Positions 2,734 through 12,323 of a stretch of DNA of 20,705 nucleotides are shown here, piece by piece. Made by a program: the position numbers and the translations under genes. Position 1 is the first letter of the stretch, and each line of letters begins with the position of its first letter. This stretch comes from a virus. The stretch lies in the UHGV virus genome UHGV-1358007; one strand, 5' to 3'. The notes below the pieces were generated by a model. It did no database searches, had not been told where the DNA came from, and saw only the letters and a list, made by a program, of their open reading frames with translations.

Positions 2734-5700
2734 ATGGAACCCATATCAATTACAGTGGCAACTTATGTAGCAACTAAACTTATTGATCAATTCATCTCTC
2801 AAGAAGGATATGGTTGTATTAAGAAAGCATTATTCCCCCAAAAAAGATATGTGGATAGATTATATCAACTAATTGAAGAGACGGCAATTGAGTTTGAAGA
2901 AACATATCCAGTAGAAAGTGGAGCAATACCATTTTATCATTCCGAACCATTGTTTGAGATGTTGAATGAGCACATCTTTTTTAAAGAGTTCCCTGACAAA
3001 GAGATATTATTAGACAAGTTCAAAGAATATCCAAGTATCACTCCCCCAACTCAACAACAACTCAGCCTTTTTTATGAGATGTTATCATTAAAAATCAATA
3101 ATTGTTCGAAGTTAAAAAAGCTACATATCGAAGAAACGTATAAAGAAAAAATATTCGATATTAATGAAGAGCTCATTCAAGTCAAACTTATTTTACGGTC
3201 TATAGATGAGAAACTAACTTTTCACTTAAGTGATGATTGGTTAAATGAAAAAAATAGTCAAGCAATAGCTGACTTGGGAGGTCGATACACACCCGAACTC
3301 AACGTAAAGCTAGAAATAGCAGAGATATTTGATGGCCTCGGTAGAACTAATGATTTTTCTAAAATATTTTATTCGCATATAGATAGCTTTCTGGTCGCTG
3401 GAAAGAAATTACATAGTTGCGATGTAATTTCCTCAGAATTATTTGAAATAAACCAGTCCTTAAAAGAAATTTCTGATATATATCAGGAGATTAATTTTTC
3501 TAAATTAGATGAAATCCCTATAAATAAATTTAATAACTATGTTTCTAGCTGCCAGACAGCTATTGGCGGAGCGGTATCAATATTGTGGGAACTCCGAGAA
3601 AAGTCAGAGCAAGTAGGTGAAACCAAGCATTACAGTGATAAGTATTCATCTACTCTGCGAATGCTTCGGGAATTTGACTATGCGTGCAATGAATTACGTA
3701 TATTCATTAATTCAACAACAGTGAAGTTGGCTAACAACCCATTCTTACTTCTCGAAGGAAAAGCAGGAATTGGTAAGTCTCATTTACTGGCTGATGTGAT
3801 TAAAAATCGAATTGCTTCTGGGTATCCTTCACTACTCATACTAGGGCAACAACTTACTTCAGATGAATCTCCATGGTCACAAATCTTCAAGAGATTACAG
3901 CTTAAAATCACTTCTCGTGAATTCCTAGAAAAACTGAATTTATATGGCAAAAAAACAGGAAAAAGAGTCTTAGTTTTTATTGATGCTATTAATGAAGGTA
4001 ATGGAAATAAATTCTGGAATGACAATATTAACAGTTTTGTCGATGAAATCAGATGCTTTGAATGGCTTGGTCTGATAATGTCAGTCAGAACAACATATAG
4101 AAATGTAACAATTTCACATGAGAATGTTGTGCGAAATAATTTTGAAATTCATGAACATATTGGATTCCAGAACGTTGAGTTGGAAGCGGTTAGTCTATTT
4201 TATGATTATTACAATATTGAGAGGCCTTCATCTCCTAACCTTAATCCAGAGTTTAAAAATCCTCTATTTCTTAAGTTATTGTGTGAAGGCATTAAGAAAA
4301 ATGGTTTAACCAAAGTGCCTGTTGGATTTAATGGGATTTCAAATATTTTTAACTTTTTAGTTGAAGGGGTAAATAAATCATTAGCATCGCCAAAAAAATA
4401 TGCATTCGATCCCAGTTTTCCTCTTGTTAAAGATGCTCTCAATGAAATCATAAAATTCAAATTAGAGATTGGTCGTAATAGTATTTCACTTAAAGATGCT
4501 CACTCAGTGGTTCAATCTGTAGTTAATGATTATGTTGCTGATAAAACCTTCCTCAGCGCCTTGATTGACGAAGGATTATTGACTAAAGGCATAGTGAGAA
4601 ATGATGATAATTCTACTGAGGAAGTAGTTTATGTGGCTTTTGAAAGGTTTGATGATCATTTAACTGTTAATTTTTTATTAAATGATGTTGAAAATATCGA
4701 AAGTGAATTTAAGCCTGATGGTCGTCTGAAAAAATATTTTCATGATGAATGTGATTTTTATATAAAATCGGGAATAGTAGAGGCGTTGTCTATTCAATTG
4801 CCAGAAAGGTATGAAAAAGAGCTTTATGAATTTCTGCCGGAGTTCAGCAATAATCTTAAATTACTAGAAGCCTTTATTGATAGCTTGATATGGCGCGATA
4901 TTAAGGCTATTGATTTCGAAAAAATTAGACCTTTCATCAATGAACATGTTTTTAAATTTAAAGATAGTTTTGATCATTTCCTCGAGGCAGTGATCTCTAT
5001 TTCAGGTTTAGTTGGCCATCCCTTTAATGCTAATTTCTTGCATGATTGGCTAAAAGATTATTCTTTGGCAAATCGAGATTCGTTTTGGACTACAGAACTT
5101 AAATATAAATATAGTGAAGACTCAGCATTTAGGCATCTAATCGATTGGGCATGGGCCAGAACAGATAAAAGCTTTGTTTCGGATGAGTCAATCGAGCTAG
5201 TTGCAACTAGTTTATGCTGGTTTTTAACTTCTAGTAACCGAGAACTTCGAGATTGCTCAACTAAGGCTTTAGTGAGTTTACTCGAGCCAAGAATTCCTGT
5301 ATTGAGAAAAATAATTGATAAGTTTTATGGTGTAAATGATCCTTACGTTTGGGAAAGAATATTTGCAGTTGCATTAGGCTGTACATTGCGAACTGATAAT
5401 ATTAAAGAACTAAAATATTTAGCCGAAACTGTTTACCAAAAGGTATTTTGTTCTAAGTATGTGTATCCAAATATATTACTTAGAGATTATGCTAGAGAGA
5501 TTATTGAATTTGCTAATCATCTTGGATTGGAACTTGAAAGCATTGAATTATCCAAGACTAGACCACCCTACAACAGCATTTGGCCTGACAAGATTCCTTC
5601 AAAAGAGGAACTAGAGTCCCTTTATGATAAAGAACCTTATCGGGAACTCTGGAGCTCTATTATGGAAGATGGTGACTTTTCACGATATACTATTGGAACA

Positions 5701-7188
5701 AATTATAATCATTCTGATTGGTCTGGTTGCAAGTTTAATGAAACCCCTGTTGACCGTAAGCAAGTTTTTAAAACTTTCAAATGTAAACTAACTGATCAAC
5801 AAAAAGACTTGTATGATGCCACAGATCCTTTCATTTATGATGATAAATGCGAAGGAATTAAATTTGGTCGTGTGGTCGGTAGAAAAGCACAGGAAGAAAT
5901 AAAGGCGAGCAAGAAATTATTTAAGAATTCATTGTCATACGATCTGTTAAGTGAGTTTGAAAATGAAATAGAGCCATACCTGGATCATAATAATAATCTG
6001 CTGGAAACTGATAAACACTTTGATCTTCGACTAGCTCAACAATTTATATTCAATCGTGTTATAGAGCTTGGTTGGGATCCGGAGAAGCATGGTAATTTTG
6101 ACCAACAAATAGGAACTGGACGTGGACGTAGAGAGGCATTCCAAGAACGGATTGGTAAAAAATACCAATGGATTGCTTATTATGAATACATGGCAAGGCT
6201 AGCCGATAATTTTACTCGTTTTGAAGGTTATGGTGACGAACGAAAGGAAAATCCATACCAAGGGCCATGGGAGCCTTACGTAAGAGATATAGATCCCACT
6301 ATCTTACTTAAAGAAACTGGAACGAAAAAAATAAGCAATAAAGAAATGTGGTGGCTTAATGATGAAGTGTTTGATTGGACTTGCTCTAATGAAGACTGGG
6401 TTAAAAGTTCTACTACTATAACTAATTCATATGCTTTTATTGAAGTTAAAGATGATAATGGTGATGAATGGATAGTATTAGAAAGTCATCCATCATGGAA
6501 AGAACCAAAAATTATTGGAAACGATGATTGGGGGCACCCACGAAAAGAGGTTTGGTATCAGATCAGAAGTTATATCGTTAAAGTTGAAGAATTTGAAAAT
6601 TTTAGATGTTGGGCAATAGCTCAAGACTTTATGGGCAGGTGGATGCCGGAATGTACTGATAGATACCAATTATTTAATAGGGAGTACTATTGGTCCGAAG
6701 CATTTAAGTCTTTTAAATCAGATTATTATGGTGGATCTGACTGGACTTCGGTAACAGACCGGGAGTCTGGAGCTAAGATAGCTGATGTTAGTGTCACTTC
6801 GATTAATTATTTGTGGGAAGAGGAGTTCGACAAATCAAAAATAGAAACTTTGAATTTTTTGAAGCCTAGTAACTTAATCTTTGAAAAGATGGGATTAAAA
6901 AGTGGGGAAGTAGAGGGTAGCTTCAATGATGAAAATGGAACTATGGTTTGCTTTGCAGCTGAAGCTGTATATGCTTCAAAGCCGCATCTACTTGTTAAAA
7001 AAGAACCATTTTTAACAATGTTAAGGGACAATGGTTTTGAAATCGTTTGGACATTATTAGGTGAAAAGGGCGTTATAGGGGGCTCACTCATATCAAGTCA
7101 TCATTATGGTCGACAGGAGTTTAGTGGAGCATTTTATTATGAAGACAGTCAGCTAACAGGAAGTCATAAAACTAGCTTTACGAGATAA
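2734..7188 (+). CDS. Large NACHT/STAND-like P-loop NTPase (1484 aa); candidate single-gene anti-phage defense protein with unassigned N- and C-terminal domains
   Basis: Uninterrupted 4455-nt ORF with RBS ggaagaag upstream of ATG; Walker A GKAGIGKS (nt 3757-3780); Walker B-like VLVFIDAINE; MSVRTT and HIGFQNVELEAVSLFYDYY resembling NACHT sensor and GF motifs; AT-rich versus flanks. Confidence 0.8.
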   Translation: MEPISITVATYVATKLIDQFISQEGYGCIKKALFPQKRYVDRLYQLIEETAIEFEETYPVESGAIPFYHSEPLFEMLNEHIFFKEFPDKEILLDKFKEYPSITPPTQQQLSLFYEMLSLKINNCSKLKKLHIEETYKEKIFDINEELIQVKLILRSIDEKLTFHLSDDWLNEKNSQAIADLGGRYTPELNVKLEIAEIFDGLGRTNDFSKIFYSHIDSFLVAGKKLHSCDVISSELFEINQSLKEISDIYQEINFSKLDEIPINKFNNYVSSCQTAIGGAVSILWELREKSEQVGETKHYSDKYSSTLRMLREFDYACNELRIFINSTTVKLANNPFLLLEGKAGIGKSHLLADVIKNRIASGYPSLLILGQQLTSDESPWSQIFKRLQLKITSREFLEKLNLYGKKTGKRVLVFIDAINEGNGNKFWNDNINSFVDEIRCFEWLGLIMSVRTTYRNVTISHENVVRNNFEIHEHIGFQNVELEAVSLFYDYYNIERPSSPNLNPEFKNPLFLKLLCEGIKKNGLTKVPVGFNGISNIFNFLVEGVNKSLASPKKYAFDPSFPLVKDALNEIIKFKLEIGRNSISLKDAHSVVQSVVNDYVADKTFLSALIDEGLLTKGIVRNDDNSTEEVVYVAFERFDDHLTVNFLLNDVENIESEFKPDGRLKKYFHDECDFYIKSGIVEALSIQLPERYEKELYEFLPEFSNNLKLLEAFIDSLIWRDIKAIDFEKIRPFINEHVFKFKDSFDHFLEAVISISGLVGHPFNANFLHDWLKDYSLANRDSFWTTELKYKYSEDSAFRHLIDWAWARTDKSFVSDESIELVATSLCWFLTSSNRELRDCSTKALVSLLEPRIPVLRKIIDKFYGVNDPYVWERIFAVALGCTLRTDNIKELKYLAETVYQKVFCSKYVYPNILLRDYAREIIEFANHLGLELESIELSKTRPPYNSIWPDKIPSKEELESLYDKEPYRELWSSIMEDGDFSRYTIGTNYNHSDWSGCKFNETPVDRKQVFKTFKCKLTDQQKDLYDATDPFIYDDKCEGIKFGRVVGRKAQEEIKASKKLFKNSLSYDLLSEFENEIEPYLDHNNNLLETDKHFDLRLAQQFIFNRVIELGWDPEKHGNFDQQIGTGRGRREAFQERIGKKYQWIAYYEYMARLADNFTRFEGYGDERKENPYQGPWEPYVRDIDPTILLKETGTKKISNKEMWWLNDEVFDWTCSNEDWVKSSTTITNSYAFIEVKDDNGDEWIVLESHPSWKEPKIIGNDDWGHPRKEVWYQIRSYIVKVEEFENFRCWAIAQDFMGRWMPECTDRYQLFNREYYWSEAFKSFKSDYYGGSDWTSVTDRESGAKIADVSVTSINYLWEEEFDKSKIETLNFLKPSNLIFEKMGLKSGEVEGSFNDENGTMVCFAAEAVYASKPHLLVKKEPFLTMLRDNGFEIVWTLLGEKGVIGGSLISSHHYGRQEFSGAFYYEDSQLTGSHKTSFTR

Positions 7189-7631: not shown

Positions 7632-8795
7632 TTACACATCATTAGTACCTTCCTTATTTTTTGACTGGGACAAATTTGGGACCGATGGGTTCAGGATCGA
7701 GTCTATTTGCCGTGCGTGTTCGGTAAGGTGATTAGGTGCAAGGTGAGCATATCGACGAACCATTTCGATAGACTCCCAGCCTCCCATTTCCTGTAACACT
7801 GACAACGGGACTCCGGCTTGAACCAGCCAACTTGCCCAGGTGTGTCTCAAGTCGTGAAATCTGAAATCATCAATACCAGCCCGTCTCAGCGCCGCTTTCC
7901 AGGCTGTGTTTGCGTCATACCGCATCTTCCTTACTGTTGGCGCTTTCGTTCCGTCTGGTTTGGTACAGCTTTCCTTGTACACAAATACCCAACGGTGATG
8001 ATTCCCGATTTGTTTTTTCAATACGCGACATGCAGTATCATTCAGCGCAACGCCAATTGCGCGGTTTGATTTACTCTCTTCCGGGTTTATCCATGCCACC
8101 CGGCGCTGCATATCTATTTGTTGCCATTCAAGGTTGATGATGTTCGAGCGTCTTAAGCCTGTTGCCAGTGCAAATTCAACAACAGACTTTAATGGCTCCG
8201 GACATTCATCAATCAGCCTTTGTGCTTCATGGGGCTCCAGCCAGCGGATCCGTTTATTCTTTGGTTGAGGCACTTTAATAATTGGTGCCTTATCCAGCAT
8301 TTTCCATTCACGCTCTGCGGCTCTTAGTAGGGCCTTTATAAATGAAAGATGCGTAGCCTTCGTTGCAACGGACGCTGGTTTTGGCGTGTATTCTGGAACA
8401 GGTTTCCCTTTTTTTCTGCATGCTTCTGCCCTGAGTTTCCAGTTTTCCTCATGACGCCGGTTCGTCATTTTCTGCATTGCTGAATAAATTTTTGATTCAG
8501 TAATGTCTCTTAGTTGCATTCCTGCGAAATGTTGAAGCCAGAATCCGATCCGGCTTTTGTCATCGTCCAGTGATTTTTTATGTGCTTTCTCTTCAAGCCA
8601 CCTGACACACGCTTCCTCGAACGTTATATCAGGTATTTCACCAAGTTTGCTGACCCGCCATGCTTCAGCCTTTAGCTTGTCATGGAGTTCTGTCGCCTGC
8701 CTTTTGTCCTTTGTTCCAAGAGACTGTTTAAATCTTTTACCGTTCGGCAATGTGAAACTGGCGTACCATATTTCACCTCTGCGGAAGAGTGACAT
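7632..8795 (-). CDS. int: Tyrosine integrase (P22 Int-like, 387 aa)
   Basis: [33 protein letters not shown]... with C-terminal [15 protein letters not shown]...VRRYAHL catalytic region; RBS aggaaag upstream; next to att core. Confidence 0.95.
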
Positions 8796-9022
8796 TTTCT
8801 TTCCTCTGTTATGCCATCACCCGCGCTCACCTGGACAGTATGCAGCGGAGACTGAAGAGCCGCAATGCAGGCTTGTCGTGTTGTGAGGTAAGGAGATTTA
8901 TTCTTAGTGGGATCTTTGCGTGTTGCCTGAAGACGCCCTGTGCGTATCCAGTTAATGGCAGTCGGTCTGGATATCTTGAGAAAATGACAGGCCTCATCGA
9001 GTGTGAGGCTGTATGGCTCCAT
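8672..9022 (-). CDS. xis: Excisionase (P22 Xis-like, 116 aa), start taken at internal ATG with RBS
   Basis: [36 protein letters not shown]...; agaggtga RBS before ATG at 9022; overlaps int 3' end as in lambdoid int-xis pairs. Confidence 0.8.
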
Positions 9023-9327
9023 TATTTCACCTCTTGTTGTGACATTGTTGAAAAATGGATACCTGCTCGTTGCTGCCAGACGATCCAACCGAGAGTCATA
9101 TCCCATGCCATGTATTCGTTATCGCCGTTTTTTGCTCTCCGACGATCTACTAAGTCACCGAAACGCTTTTCCATGAATAATTCATAAGCTTCGCGTTCAT
9201 CTGGTTCTACTTCCAGAGATAGGAGTGCGATTTCATAAGCACGGCGCTCAATATCGTCTCGCACGTCAAGGCTGCTGATACGCTCTTTAATTTCTTTAAT
9301 CAGTTCTTTGTCGGTAAAAGTGGTCAT
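9022..9327 (-). CDS. Hypothetical early-left protein (101 aa, acidic)
   Basis: ORF translationally coupled to xis and the upstream gene; similar in size and order to yfdT-like genes of enterobacterial prophages (from memory). Confidence 0.6.
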   Translation of the reverse strand: MTTFTDKELIKEIKERISSLDVRDDIERRAYEIALLSLEVEPDEREAYELFMEKRFGDLVDRRRAKNGDNEYMAWDMTLGWIVWQQRAGIHFSTMSQQEVK

Positions 9328-9689
9328 TATGCTCCAGCCTCCGGTGCTTTTGGCATTACTGCCCAGTGAGTGATATTGACGTTTTCAAGGTCCCCGACCT
9401 GAAATGTCCACTGCCATTCTCCGGTTTCTTTTTGTCCCCAGGTGTACCAGAGAGAACGCCAGCCAATTAGCCAGCCTTCTCCGTTAGCATCGAATAACAA
9501 AACACTTTCATTTGCTGGTGGCAGTTCAGTTGACACTGGTATTACTTTGTTTTCCTGTGCTGCACATTTAGCTTCAAGCGCATCGAATTTACGCACCAGG
9601 TATTCAGCATCTGTTTCATTCACTTTCAGATCTCGCGGTACACATCTCCCACGAAGAAACCCTTCCATTTCGAAAACATTCATGCGCAT
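9327..9689 (-). CDS. Hypothetical early-left protein (120 aa)
   Basis: ORF in operon context; ATGA overlap with downstream gene. Confidence 0.6.
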   Translation of the reverse strand: MRMNVFEMEGFLRGRCVPRDLKVNETDAEYLVRKFDALEAKCAAQENKVIPVSTELPPANESVLLFDANGEGWLIGWRSLWYTWGQKETGEWQWTFQVGDLENVNITHWAVMPKAPEAGA

Positions 9690-10216
9690 TTGCGTAACTC
9701 CGATAACTCGTTAAAACGTTCCATAAACATCCCGTAGGCATGGCCCGGTGCCTGTGGAATCACTTTGAACATCTCTGTTGCCGGGATACCTTCCAGTACA
9801 GGCCAGAAAGAGCCATCATCAAGCCCGAGATCGCGGCGTTCGGTTGCCAGCATAATGAGATCGGCATATTTCACTGGCGTGCTCATAACAGGAGGTAACC
9901 CGTATTTCTCACGGATTACGGCGTCTATTTTTTCTTCCATCCGTTTATAGTCAGGAAGAAGTCGTTTCAGTGGTGCGGGGATGTCCTGGCAATATGCTTC
10001 TGTTGCATCATGCATTAAAGCTTCAAAAGCAAATTCCTGTGGCACCAGCTGGCTGCAAAGCACCGCATGTTGGGCGACACTGTAGAAGTGTGAAAGATGT
10101 CCTGCAAAGCGACAGATATTTGAAAGGGAAACCGCGATATCGTTAATAACGATGTCGTCTTTATTTATCCTGTCATAATAAAAATGCTTCCCGGAAAAAG
10201 TTTTAATAAATGACAT
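9680..10216 (-). CDS. HD-domain phosphohydrolase (YfdR-like 5'-deoxynucleotidase family), 178 aa from internal ATG
   Basis: H...HD motif (SVAQHAVLC ... LMHDATEAY); ggagaa RBS 7 nt before ATG at 10216; the ORF track's longer start at 10243 lacks an RBS. Confidence 0.75.
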   Translation of the reverse strand: MSFIKTFSGKHFYYDRINKDDIVINDIAVSLSNICRFAGHLSHFYSVAQHAVLCSQLVPQEFAFEALMHDATEAYCQDIPAPLKRLLPDYKRMEEKIDAVIREKYGLPPVMSTPVKYADLIMLATERRDLGLDDGSFWPVLEGIPATEMFKVIPQAPGHAYGMFMERFNELSELRKCA

Positions 10217-10299
10217 TTTGTTCTCCACGTATATGCGCTGCACCGCGCTGAATTCGGGTAAAAGGAAGCCCTCACCGTCCGGCGATTATTGAGTCAATT

Positions 10300-10690
10300 A
10301 CATTTCCATAAATGCCCCCGCAGGGGCGGTTAGTTTCTCCACAAAACAGAGAAGAACACCTGCGGTAGCAGCCGCCCGGATGGATTGGGTTATAAGCCCG
10401 TCGTCCGGTGATGCTCTTCTCTGTTTTGTAAAAAGGGCGATACCAGCCGGAAGCAAGGGTACAAACTGGTACCGCCAAGACTACACACAGCATAAAGTTG
10501 TGGTGCCGGGTGCCTCCCGGTGCCTGGCGAAGGTTGCACACCAGGCGGGTGGGTATCCACAGAAGGTCGACTGTCAGCCTCAACCTTAACCCGCGTGCGC
10601 TGAGCCGCATTCACCACAACGCTAAGGATTCTCTCTGGTTGAAAATACTTAGCTGTTATGTGCCTGCTTTTAGCCACATCAGGCGAGGTG
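10300..10690. other. GC-rich, hairpin-rich, apparently non-coding block (candidate structured RNA or gene remnant)
   Basis: 15-bp perfect inverted repeat acaaaacagagaaga/tcttctctgttttgt (about 10342-10430) around a GC-rich 59-nt loop; further short stems (ccggg/cccgg, cctgg/ccagg); only overlapping ORFs on both strands without RBS. Confidence 0.3.
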
Positions 10691-10696
10691 GACCTA

Positions 10697-10745
10697 GTTA
10701 TTCCCCAACAACAAGGATTCGGTTAATCTGGTTATCCCCAACAAC
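10697..10745 (+). repeat. Two direct repeats GTTAT(T)CCCCAACAAC about 33 bp apart, just upstream of the 10761 gene
   Basis: Seen directly; the repeat contains TTATCCCCA, one mismatch from a DnaA-box consensus TTATCCACA. Confidence 0.55.
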
Positions 10746-10760
10746 GCAAAAGGAAAAGAA

Positions 10761-11195
10761 ATGTCCGGTAATATCTATACGCTGTACAAATCCCACTGTG
10801 AAAATGTTGGAAAGTATCGGGGCATTGAAATCAGTGGGGTAGTGTCATCAGTCGAAATAAGCAAAGTTGAATCAAGGGCAACATTACTTACTCTTTTGGA
10901 CCTTGTCTTACATGAGCACCGGAAGAAATTCGGCACTCCCTATAATCAGTTGAATGGGAAAAAGGCTCTGGTTCACCTTATTCTGATGAAGCATCACTGG
11001 ATGCCAAAACAGATTAATGAGATGAAATTTGATGAACTTCTTCTTTCAATTCAGGATGAACTCACACTTGATAAAATAAGCGTAACCGCCCAGAAATTTT
11101 TAGATTATCGAGACTGGAGATCACAAATTCATCACTTTGATGATTTTGACGAAAATGAATGGGATCCTAATTTGTCTGCACAATATCTAAAGTAA
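10761..11195 (+). CDS. Hypothetical AT-rich protein (144 aa), convergent with the early-left operon; possible moron
   Basis: ORF with aaaggaaaag purine-rich stretch before ATG; followed on the same strand by an intrinsic terminator; no family recognised. Confidence 0.55.
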   Translation: MSGNIYTLYKSHCENVGKYRGIEISGVVSSVEISKVESRATLLTLLDLVLHEHRKKFGTPYNQLNGKKALVHLILMKHHWMPKQINEMKFDELLLSIQDELTLDKISVTAQKFLDYRDWRSQIHHFDDFDENEWDPNLSAQYLK

Positions 11196-11620: not shown

Positions 11621-12022
11621 TTAGAGTTCGTATTGAACTCCTTTGACTACACCAATGATAAGGCAATTACCATTGATAGGGATGTTGGGATACCGAGGAT
11701 TTAATGGCACTAAAAACTTTTGAGGGCCATCGATGACTAATTTTTTTACTGTAGCTTCGTTTGTTCCATCAAGTCGAGCGATGACTATTTTTCCATGACG
11801 AGGTTCTGCATCTGGATCTACAATCACTGTTGCGCCTTCTGGTATTGTTGGGAGGCCATTAGGGTTAGTCATGGAGTCACCTTTAACCTCTAATGCAAAT
11901 GAGTTATCACCAATCTTTAATGATGTATCTACCCACTTGTCCACTTCACTAAACACTTCTGCTGCCCTGCACTCAGTAAACTGCCCAGCCTGAACCCACG
12001 ATATTACAGGAACTCTGCGCAT
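11621..12022 (-). CDS. cI-type repressor C-terminal S24 peptidase domain only (133 aa); N-terminal HTH domain absent
   Basis: VQAGQF (Ala-Gly cleavage site), GDSM (catalytic Ser) and VKKL (Lys) conserved; aligns to lambda cI residues about 100-236; only 28 in-frame codons upstream before a stop, none a start codon; no SD. Confidence 0.75.
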   Translation of the reverse strand: MRRVPVISWVQAGQFTECRAAEVFSEVDKWVDTSLKIGDNSFALEVKGDSMTNPNGLPTIPEGATVIVDPDAEPRHGKIVIARLDGTNEATVKKLVIDGPQKFLVPLNPRYPNIPINGNCLIIGVVKGVQYEL

Positions 12023-12122: not shown

Positions 12123-12323
12123 ATGACAACTGACGATATCGAAAGCTACTTCGGCAGTATTGAGAAAGTTGCTGCTTTTTTCGGCATAACAACTGAAGCC
12201 GTTTATCAGTGGCGAAACCGTCCGGGCCAGTTAATTCCAAAAGGACGTGCAGCAGAAGCTGCATATAGAACTTGCGGACGGTTGCCATTTAAACCTGAGC
12301 TTTATGAAAAATCTAATGGATAA
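12123..12323 (+). CDS. cro: Cro-like HTH regulator (66 aa)
   Basis: Small HTH protein (IEKVAAFFGITTEAVYQWRNRPGQLIP) divergent from the repressor gene; RBS ggaggg. Confidence 0.75.
   Translation: MTTDDIESYFGSIEKVAAFFGITTEAVYQWRNRPGQLIPKGRAAEAAYRTCGRLPFKPELYEKSNG

Follow-up and report, generated by a model that had tools for sequence, protein, structure and literature searches.

The GC-rich block analysed here is not a gene. It is the untranslated head of the leftward early operon of a prophage and carries three conserved RNA modules, M1, M2 and M3, all on the minus strand, a strand that the original prediction had overlooked. M1 is a pseudoknotted domain related to the STnc100/PasD small RNAs, M2 a linker followed by an intrinsic terminator, and M3 a long-stem three-way-junction RNA. 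We propose, with a probability of roughly 0.55, that this leader is best explained by a small RNA terminated at M2 combined with RNase III cleavage of read-through transcripts within M3. The original prediction had regarded the block as a single structured, non-coding RNA or as a degraded foreign gene, and in either case as not phage coding sequence. The non-coding, structured reading is borne out: two separate covariance models score 86.7 bits (R1, built on M1, one copy) and 119.1 bits (R2, built on M3) in the window, by which we mean the whole 20,705-nt stretch of DNA, the helices carry compensatory changes, and the largest ORF is broken in relatives. What had been taken for one element proves to be two distinct RNA elements with a terminator between them. 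The foreign-gene reading is not supported, since the block is native to lambdoid phages and widely conserved among them, with matches in 72 phage records and in 2782 of the 5426 complete E. coli genomes. About half of the complete E. coli genomes therefore carry the block, and once it is recognised as RNA a spurious gene family disappears.

As a lambdoid prophage, the window is of the SfII/SfV/ST64B type. The genes and ORFs around and within the block are as follows:

380-2196, tail-fibre genes
2734-7188, Avs2 defence gene of low GC content
7632-8795, minus strand, integrase
8672-9106, minus strand, HTH-domain gene homologous to the excisionase annotated in SfII
Between the HTH-domain gene and the YfdR-type gene, two small genes
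9680-10216, minus strand, YfdR-type HD-domain 5'-deoxynucleotidase, first operon gene after the leader (PHROG 318, 3.8e-109)
10272-10610, minus strand, ORF in the block
10390-10677, minus strand, ORF in the block
10380-10589, plus strand, ORF in the block
10498-10842, plus strand, ORF in the block
10761-11195, plus strand, ECs1072-family gene
11621-12022, minus strand, S24-domain repressor remnant of the immunity region
12123-12323, plus strand, Cro-like gene of the immunity region, where a CII-like gene also lies

The Pfam matches of the gene at 9680-10216 to YfbR-like and HD_3 are weak, and its homologue is annotated yfdR in RefSeq; DUF551 and HTH genes come after it in the operon, and then the integrase. 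In SfII, ST64B, mEp460 and Stx2a_WGPS2, the block is bordered by the immunity region on one side and by the first early-left gene on the other, and its position at the head of the early-left operon is constant. Prophage CPS-53 of E. coli K-12 has lost both M1 and M3. A GC-rich, ORF-poor block is indeed present, with a GC content of 0.557 at 10351-10650 versus 0.39-0.49 in the flanking genes, yet the limits first assigned to it were too narrow, the true extent being approximately 10313-10691. The breakpoints of homology at about 10316, 10478 and 10691 coincide with module edges; in many phages homology begins at about 10316, and in some relatives it reaches about 10745. No sigma-70 match is found in the 140 nt upstream of M1, the nearest minus-strand candidates being located at 11007-10980 and 11567-11539. 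The transcript must therefore start approximately 0.4-0.9 kb upstream of M1, antisense to the ECs1072-family gene.

As predicted, the only ORFs in the block overlap one another on both strands, and none of the four matches Pfam or PHROGs. The strongest case for a small protein gene, real or decayed, is the ORF at 10272-10610, which is annotated in SfII (SfII_35, "hypothetical protein") and several other phages and is open in most close relatives. Elsewhere the block bears no annotation or that of a frameshifted pseudogene, as in the RefSeq record of STEC388. The frame is open only above 95% nucleotide identity. In ST64B, which shares 77% identity, a stop occurs after seven codons and indels of 1 nt and 20 nt are tolerated, and two viral contigs carry frameshifts. 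Additionally, the ORF lacks a Shine-Dalgarno sequence, and its start codon falls within J1/2, a helix junction of M1. A protein-coding origin of the block is thus highly improbable.

The RNA elements of the leader, listed from 5' to 3' along the transcript, are as follows:

10621-10653, minus strand, P0, a 13-bp hairpin directly 5' of M1, GCUAAGUAUUUUC / GAGAAUCCUUAGC, an inverted repeat present in the minimum-free-energy fold
10499-10618, minus strand, M1, STnc100/PasD-family domain of five helices and about 120 nt
10618-10612 with 10505-10499, minus strand, helix P1 of M1
10608-10593, minus strand, helix P2 of M1
10587-10581 (AAGGUUG) with 10536-10530 (CAACCUU), minus strand, helix P3 of M1, the pseudoknot
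10545-10539 with 10529-10523, minus strand, helix P4 of M1
10520-10506, minus strand, helix P5 of M1
10498-10430, minus strand, M2 as a module, consisting of linker and terminator
10477-10498, minus strand, single-stranded linker, candidate seed or RNase E entry region, with the motif UGCUGUGUGUAGUCUU at 10492-10477
10430-10476, minus strand, M2 intrinsic terminator, GGCGGUACCAG (10476-10466) with CUGGUAUCGCC (10446-10436), then C and five U (10434-10430)
10341-10429, minus strand, M3, three-way-junction RNA
10429-10410 with 10360-10341, minus strand, S1 of M3, a 20-bp stem that includes the 15-bp repeat
10408-10404 with 10380-10376, minus strand, S2 of M3
10399-10387, minus strand, inner hairpin of M3
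10375-10372 with 10365-10362, minus strand, S3 of M3
10333-10340, minus strand, conserved GGAGAAAC, adjoining the M3 stem on its 3' side and in part complementary to the U-tract of the terminator
10313-10328, minus strand, small G+C hairpin GCCCC-UGCG-GGGGC followed by AUUUAU, at the mosaic junction with the downstream gene cassette

M1 is a sub-threshold relative of the Rfam family STnc100 (RF02076), with covariation in every helix, and is a new member of this known but functionally uncharacterised family. An Rfam scan and a covariation analysis among relatives had been suggested as checks on the block. The scan at gathering thresholds lists no match in it and, for the window as a whole, just IS009 elsewhere, whereas a permissive scan (E ≤ 10) aligns M1 to the full length of the STnc100 model with 42.7 bits (E = 7e-8), below the gathering score of 47. 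The M1 copies in the Qin prophage of K-12 and in ST64B, scored with the same model, reach 34.4 and 35.1 bits and likewise fall below the gathering threshold. M1 shares with STnc100/PasD the helices P1, P2, P4 and P5, the invariant GGUGAAU and the 22-mer CACCGGGAGGCACCCGGCACCA, which occurs exactly in more than 120 viral contigs, as well as the arrangement in which a linker and then an intrinsic terminator come after the domain. It differs in its longer interior and in three C-G to G-C swaps in P2, and these swaps account for the lower Rfam score. M1 also differs in location, lying in an early-left leader without a promoter of its own, whereas the described STnc100/PasD copies are late, near Q, stx or lysis genes, and often have their own promoter. 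The family thereby gains sub-threshold members, a new genomic position and a pseudoknot.

The "further 5-bp stems" noticed earlier turn out to be helices P2, P4 and P5 of M1, and the covariation analysis shows that the helices of both M1 and M3 keep their pairing through compensatory changes. Of the M1 helices, P1, P2 and P5 are recovered by RNAalifold, the first two with compensatory changes. In P4, a C-G pair is replaced by U-A in ST64B, and in P5, GGUGG/CCACC replaces CCGGG/CCCGG in divergent members that were chosen independently of the 22-mer. Representatives for the R1 model were drawn from 76 distinct 22-mer cores, and in most of them the 5' strand of P3 occupies positions 28-32. MAFFT sets P3 out of register, and the pseudoknot was therefore assessed by an alignment-free permutation test on 28 distinct P3 sequences. 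Each P3 strand scores a mean of 5.92 against its own P4 loop versus 3.86 ± 0.17 against swapped loops, and none of 2000 permutations scores as high. The pseudoknot is a feature beyond the RF02076 model; a word search of a recent Pas/STnc100 preprint for a pseudoknot, DicF or an early-region location came back empty. At the position of P0, ST64B carries a shorter hairpin (UAAGAG / CUCUUA). P5 stacks on P1 in the fashion of a tRNA, yet ARAGORN returns no match for M1, and a tRNA-like identity was rejected.

The M2 terminator is placed 22 nt after M1 and is present in the computed fold of the upstream region. Its loop is unusually long (19 nt) and its U-tract comprises just five U; the consensus terminator scan missed it because the loop exceeds 8 nt. 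At this place the hairpin of ST64B is different and longer, with a 20-nt insertion, but the U-tract is the same, which indicates that the M2 stem is kept by compensation. The linker motif, which the minimum-free-energy fold leaves unpaired, is conserved from the E. coli to the Salmonella version although the adjoining terminator is replaced, and it recurs in several loci that otherwise differ.

On these features, termination at M2 would release M1 and M2 together in a small RNA of about 190 nt, arranged in the manner of STnc100 and of the long form of DicF, and such an RNA may act in trans. Expression and association with Hfq are known for family members other than the window copy (PMC5331693; PMC8550237). 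Specifically, STnc100 copies in EHEC fall into a size class of about 160-210 nt by RNA-seq, with STnc100_4 confirmed by Northern blot (PMC5331693), and the Hfq-dependent Pas RNAs are of comparable size class (PMC8550237). The stretch of the predicted small RNA for which RNA partners would be sought is UGCUGUGUGUAGUC. No site complementary to the linker was found inside the window. The duplex between the linker and the ftsZ translation start, at -17.7 kcal/mol versus a shuffled mean of -17.6, does not stand out, in a low-power test that the first 26 nt of DicF also failed (-17.9 versus -18.5). A pairing between the 5' arm of the terminator and the variable hairpin of M3 was considered as well; it is unconserved in ST64B and in mosaic variants, and was judged to reflect shared ancestry or chance.

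An aptamer-like conserved fold with a terminator within about 25 nt could also be a ligand- or protein-responsive attenuator, in which M1 acts as a sensor whose fold sets formation of the M2 terminator and thereby switches the early-left operon. In line with such a switch, the 5' strand of P3 has two mutually exclusive partners in the window, the local UCGACCUU and the P4 loop. In ST64B, however, the local alternative is weakened while the pseudoknot is still perfect, and M1 was not found to form any conserved anti-terminator pairing with the terminator; terminators are swapped freely while M1 stays constant. Moreover, M1 in Qin comes after a terminator. Attenuation is accordingly an improbable account of the leader.

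Downstream of M2, the 15-bp perfect inverted repeat described in the original prediction exists exactly as claimed, with arms acaaaacagagaaga (10341-10355) and tcttctctgttttgt (10415-10429) separated by a 59-nt spacer. The chance expectation of such a repeat within 100 nt is about 0.002 per 20.7 kb (20705 × 100 / 4^15). On the minus strand, the repeat helix lengthens to 20 bp once G.U pairs are counted: S1 consists of the 15 Watson-Crick pairs and five more, including two G.U, and the minimum-free-energy fold adds another three pairs. The 128 nt around the repeat fold to -61.1 kcal/mol versus -36.3 ± 3.5 for shuffled sequences (z = -7.07), and none of 200 shuffles folds as well; the 236 nt upstream of the repeat region give a folding z of -3.65.

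Covariation supports the M3 structure. In an alignment of 20 sequences, 95.9% of cells pair, against 36-49% in slid controls, nine pairs are doubly changed, and none of 500 shuffles matches this result. One pair is C-G in ten of the sequences and G-C in the other ten. The result is reproduced on 31 distinct rows that include other genera. Frequent G.U pairs and the asymmetry of the covariance scores fix the functional strand of M3: on the window, R2 scores only 42.5 bits on the plus strand, and M3 copies in general score 98-123 bits in sense versus 35-47 bits in antisense.

The same evidence bears on whether the block acts as DNA, either as a recombination boundary or as a protein-binding palindrome that drives lambdoid mosaic exchange. 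Breakpoints do fall at module edges, and module order varies among Qin, lambda and the window. Nevertheless, helices of the block are paired through G.U that would be A.C mismatches on the opposite strand, the models score two to three times higher on one strand, and neither the pseudoknot nor the junction helices are palindromes. Strand-specific G.U pairs, model asymmetry and non-palindromic helices are what selection on RNA, not on duplex DNA, is expected to leave, and we regard a DNA-level element as very improbable.

As a conserved RNA motif, M3 is the second in the block; it matches nothing in Rfam at E ≤ 10 and is not described in those STnc100/Pas and DicF papers that were consulted. 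Its core motif is found in more than 100 further viral contigs and in 23 species-representative genomes from 14 genera of Enterobacterales. The core comprises about 40 near-invariant nucleotides, GCAUCACCGGNCGACGGGCUYAUAACCCAAUCCAYCCGGGC, a degree of constancy that a plain RNase III site leaves unexplained, as it does the pseudoknot of M1. In 11 of the 23 species genomes, belonging to several genera, M1 lies 60-200 nt upstream of M3 (E ≤ 0.01), and many of the viral contigs also have an M1 upstream of M3, at times a very diverged one. A CACCGGG...CCCGG helix is common to M1 and M3, and the two elements may share a partner through it. A U-tract is present just 5' of the M3 stem, at a distance of two bases, in 29 of 31 copies.

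On the 3' side of the stem, the minimum-free-energy fold pairs UUU (10432-10430) with GGA (10340-10338). GGAGAA follows M3 in nearly all loci, usually succeeded by a small G+C hairpin and then by the first early-left gene. The hairpin at 10313-10328 is listed as terminator-like on the plus strand, and ST64B and many other loci have a hairpin of other sequence in this place (GGCGG..CCGCC).

The M3 stem probably marks an RNase III cut site. In the mechanism that we favour, most transcripts would end at M2 and yield the small RNA, and those that read through would be cut by RNase III in the M3 stem, freeing the same small RNA. The cut would give the downstream yfdR-xis-int mRNA a new 5' end, by which its stability or translation may be affected. 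Two predictions follow from the mechanism, a new small RNA of the prophage and an RNase III site, the latter with a possible role in controlling how the excision and integration genes are expressed. A close parallel is the dicF locus of the Qin prophage, whose early-left operon, ydfABC-dicF-dicB, lies beside the immunity region as does that of the window. Both loci combine an M1 element with a terminated small RNA, predicted in the window, whose stem base resembles UUGGCGGUAYCAGUUU, and in both an intrinsic terminator inside the operon has long stems beside it.

In Qin, the M1 copy is located between the dicF terminator and dicB (R1, 70.6 bits, E = 5e-19). It has a pseudoknot of its own, CAGUUAA with UUAACUG, and is closed by a long stem, GUGAAUUUUGUGAUG / CAUCACAAAAUUCAU; its low Rfam score explains why it has remained unannotated. 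Upstream of dicF, R2 weakly matches an M3-like stem (13.4 bits, E = 0.016, L233 2162-2266), whose two arms both have sequence in common with M3 and whose mismatch coincides in position with the one conserved in M3 (column 22-116). DicF is known in two species relevant here, a 190-nt species whose 5' end is made by RNase III (10.1101/2023.04.14.536235) and a 72-nt species whose 3' end arises when RNase III cuts the full-length RNA (PMC9438474). Neither paper gives coordinates, and we placed the cut sites from the published RNA lengths. Counted back from the annotated 3' end of DicF, the 190-nt species would be cut at about L233 2246, in the 3' arm of the M3-like stem; counted forward from the annotated 5' end, the 72-nt species would be cut at about L233 2454, within the 5' arm of the closing stem of Qin M1.

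The two loci are not identical. The order is stem, DicF, M1 and dicB in Qin, but M1, DicF-like terminator, M3 and yfdR in the window, and the junction core of M3 is absent from Qin. The window M3 stem has the position of the second Qin site, right after a terminator, and the sequence resemblance of the first. Nor is the window RNA a DicF: M2 reaches 19.7 bits (E = 0.1) with the DicF model RF00039, against a gathering score of 48 and 76.7 bits for true DicF, its seed is different, and it shows no ftsZ pairing. With this parallel, DicF biogenesis, the STnc100/PasD small RNAs and lambdoid operon leaders are joined as one reusable module set.

Stems processed by RNase III are also found in the lambda N leader and in sib. 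Like M3, they measure at least 20 bp and separate a regulatory site from the gene that opens a long operon. In lambda, the M3 stem model additionally matches 44775-44871, just after tR' (24.9 bits, E = 5e-6 in 2.5 kb). M3 has a conserved three-way-junction core that this post-tR' stem lacks, and we found no documentation of RNase III cleavage of the lambda stem. An M1-like element at 44859-44939 scores 8.2 bits, too weak to claim.

The main functional rival to termination and cleavage is processive antitermination of the kind mediated by the put sites of HK022, in which M1, M3 or both would bind RNA polymerase on the nascent RNA and carry it past M2 and later terminators. putL and putR are cis-acting structured RNAs in the early-operon leaders of an N-less lambdoid phage, where they precede terminators (PMC9378689). 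No N gene is seen here in this phage family, to which antitermination would offer a means of expressing the early-left genes, and the element lies beside a terminator that must be passed to reach yfdR, xis and int. Like putL (PMC9378689), many stand-alone M1 copies begin where a strong promoter initiates transcription, and folds as complex and highly conserved as those of M1 and M3 are typical of RNAs that bind a fixed cellular machine. In lambda, too, tR' is followed by the M3-like stem and then by the weak M1-like element.

However, the parallel with put breaks down at several points. The put sites consist of two stem-loops of about 70 nt and occur twice per genome, whereas the window has a different fold in a single copy: no second M1 was found in the window, including its early-right operon, and no second M3, including its rightward early region. 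In the whole genome of HK022, neither the M1 and M3 models nor their motifs find a match. M3 comes after the terminator, not before it, and the accumulation of the family as terminated small RNAs of about 160-210 nt implies that termination after M1 is efficient (PMC5331693). Antitermination is therefore unlikely, and we retain termination at M2 with RNase III cleavage in M3 as the preferred explanation.

A broader and equally doubtful proposal is that M1 and M3 form a modular, RNA-only control system at the heads of long lambdoid operons, early-left in the window and Qin and late in lambda and Stx phages. The invariant cores, together with the CACCGGG...CCCGG helix that both elements contain, would then bind a host machine such as RNA polymerase, a Nus factor, Hfq or ProQ and decide whether the terminator is passed. 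If this were true, it would add to RNA-mediated antitermination or attenuation a second kind, independent of put, and the abundant STnc100/PasD small RNAs would be terminated by-products of it.

The genes that such leaders precede are diverse, the first early-left gene after M3 being any of at least six unrelated genes across loci. Among the names met in this context, YfdP is a red herring: yfdP of K-12 is a real gene, which lies downstream of M3 in other phages.

An element of the STnc100 family resides in the Qin prophage of Escherichia coli K-12, at positions 2457-2580 of the Qin locus L233 (NC_000913 1649456-1649579, + strand). Our own covariance model of M1, the STnc100/PasD-family pseudoknotted RNA domain, scores this element strongly at 70.6 bits versus 34.4 bits with Rfam, and the K-12 record carries no annotation for it. 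The element lies in the spacer between dicF and dicB, that is, in the 5' UTR of dicB, and is closed by a long stem. Counting from the DicF 5' end places the RNase III cut of the 72-nt DicF species within this closing stem.

STnc100 genes also occur as stand-alone units, and one subgroup of them possesses a consensus promoter whose transcription start coincides with the 5' end of helix P1. The loci concerned, all of which carry the M1 core, are as follows.

L008, L020, L022, L033, L036, L066, L087, L099 and L101: stand-alone STnc100 subgroup, ~60-170 nt 3' of the M1 core

In these genes, ~160 nt more of conserved, stop-rich sequence (e.g. CCUGGUAAAUCGGUAGCUCGGACUAUUAGG) is followed by a terminator. 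This subgroup therefore encodes ~300-nt non-coding RNAs with a second conserved part.

In phage lambda, a long stem, GCACAACAGGUAAGAGCAUUG / CCAGUGCUCUUUCCGUUGUGC, is located immediately 3' of the tR' terminator (lambda 44775-44871; L127 1276-1372, + strand), and it scores 24.9 bits with the stem model of M3, the three-way-junction RNA. Downstream of this stem is a weak M1-like sequence, UGUGCUGAAU...CAGCACA, whose score of 8.2 bits is not significant. Within the window, M1 and M3 have a CA-CCGGG...CCCGG motif in common, found in P5 of M1 (10520-10506) and in S2 of M3 (10408-10376), where it takes the form CCGGA/UCCGG. The M3 junction looks like the P5 hairpin of M1 with a greatly enlarged loop; the two may descend from one ancestor or bind the same partner.

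Just outside the conserved RNA block, and just 5' of the ECs1072-family gene (10761-11195), the sequence TTATYCCCAACAAC occurs twice on the + strand with a spacing of 33 bp (10699-10712 and 10732-10745). These are the only two copies in the whole window when up to two mismatches are allowed, and the pair may represent a regulator-binding site serving either the rightward gene or a leftward promoter. Further along, the repressor-like gene at 11621-12022 (-) encodes 133 amino acids that comprise an S24 peptidase domain only, with no DNA-binding domain in the product, whereas relatives carry a 230-aa XRE/cI repressor at this position. The repressor of this prophage may therefore be truncated, or its immunity region may be built differently.

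The sole Rfam match above the gathering threshold in the window is IS009 (1955-2153, + strand, 222.7 bits). This match falls within the gene for tail-fibre assembly (1612-2196), so the "RNA family" has probably captured protein-coding sequence here. The Rfam search returned no match to isrK or C4 antisense RNA in the window; in phage ST64B, both are present in the rightward early region (L002 6719-6920, + strand), with 64.3 bits for isrK and 79.7 bits for C4 antisense RNA, and together they form an RNA immunity module of the P1/P7 type.

Between the integrase and tail-fibre genes lies an ORF of 1484 aa (2734-7188, + strand), with a GC content of ~0.32 that is much lower than that of the remaining window. 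Pfam gave no matches for this ORF, and PADLOC identified it over its full length as the antiviral STAND NTPase Avs2, with a score of 1752 bits. It has the look of a cargo gene for defence, sited at the end of the prophage with the attachment site, a position that the gtr genes occupy in SfII.
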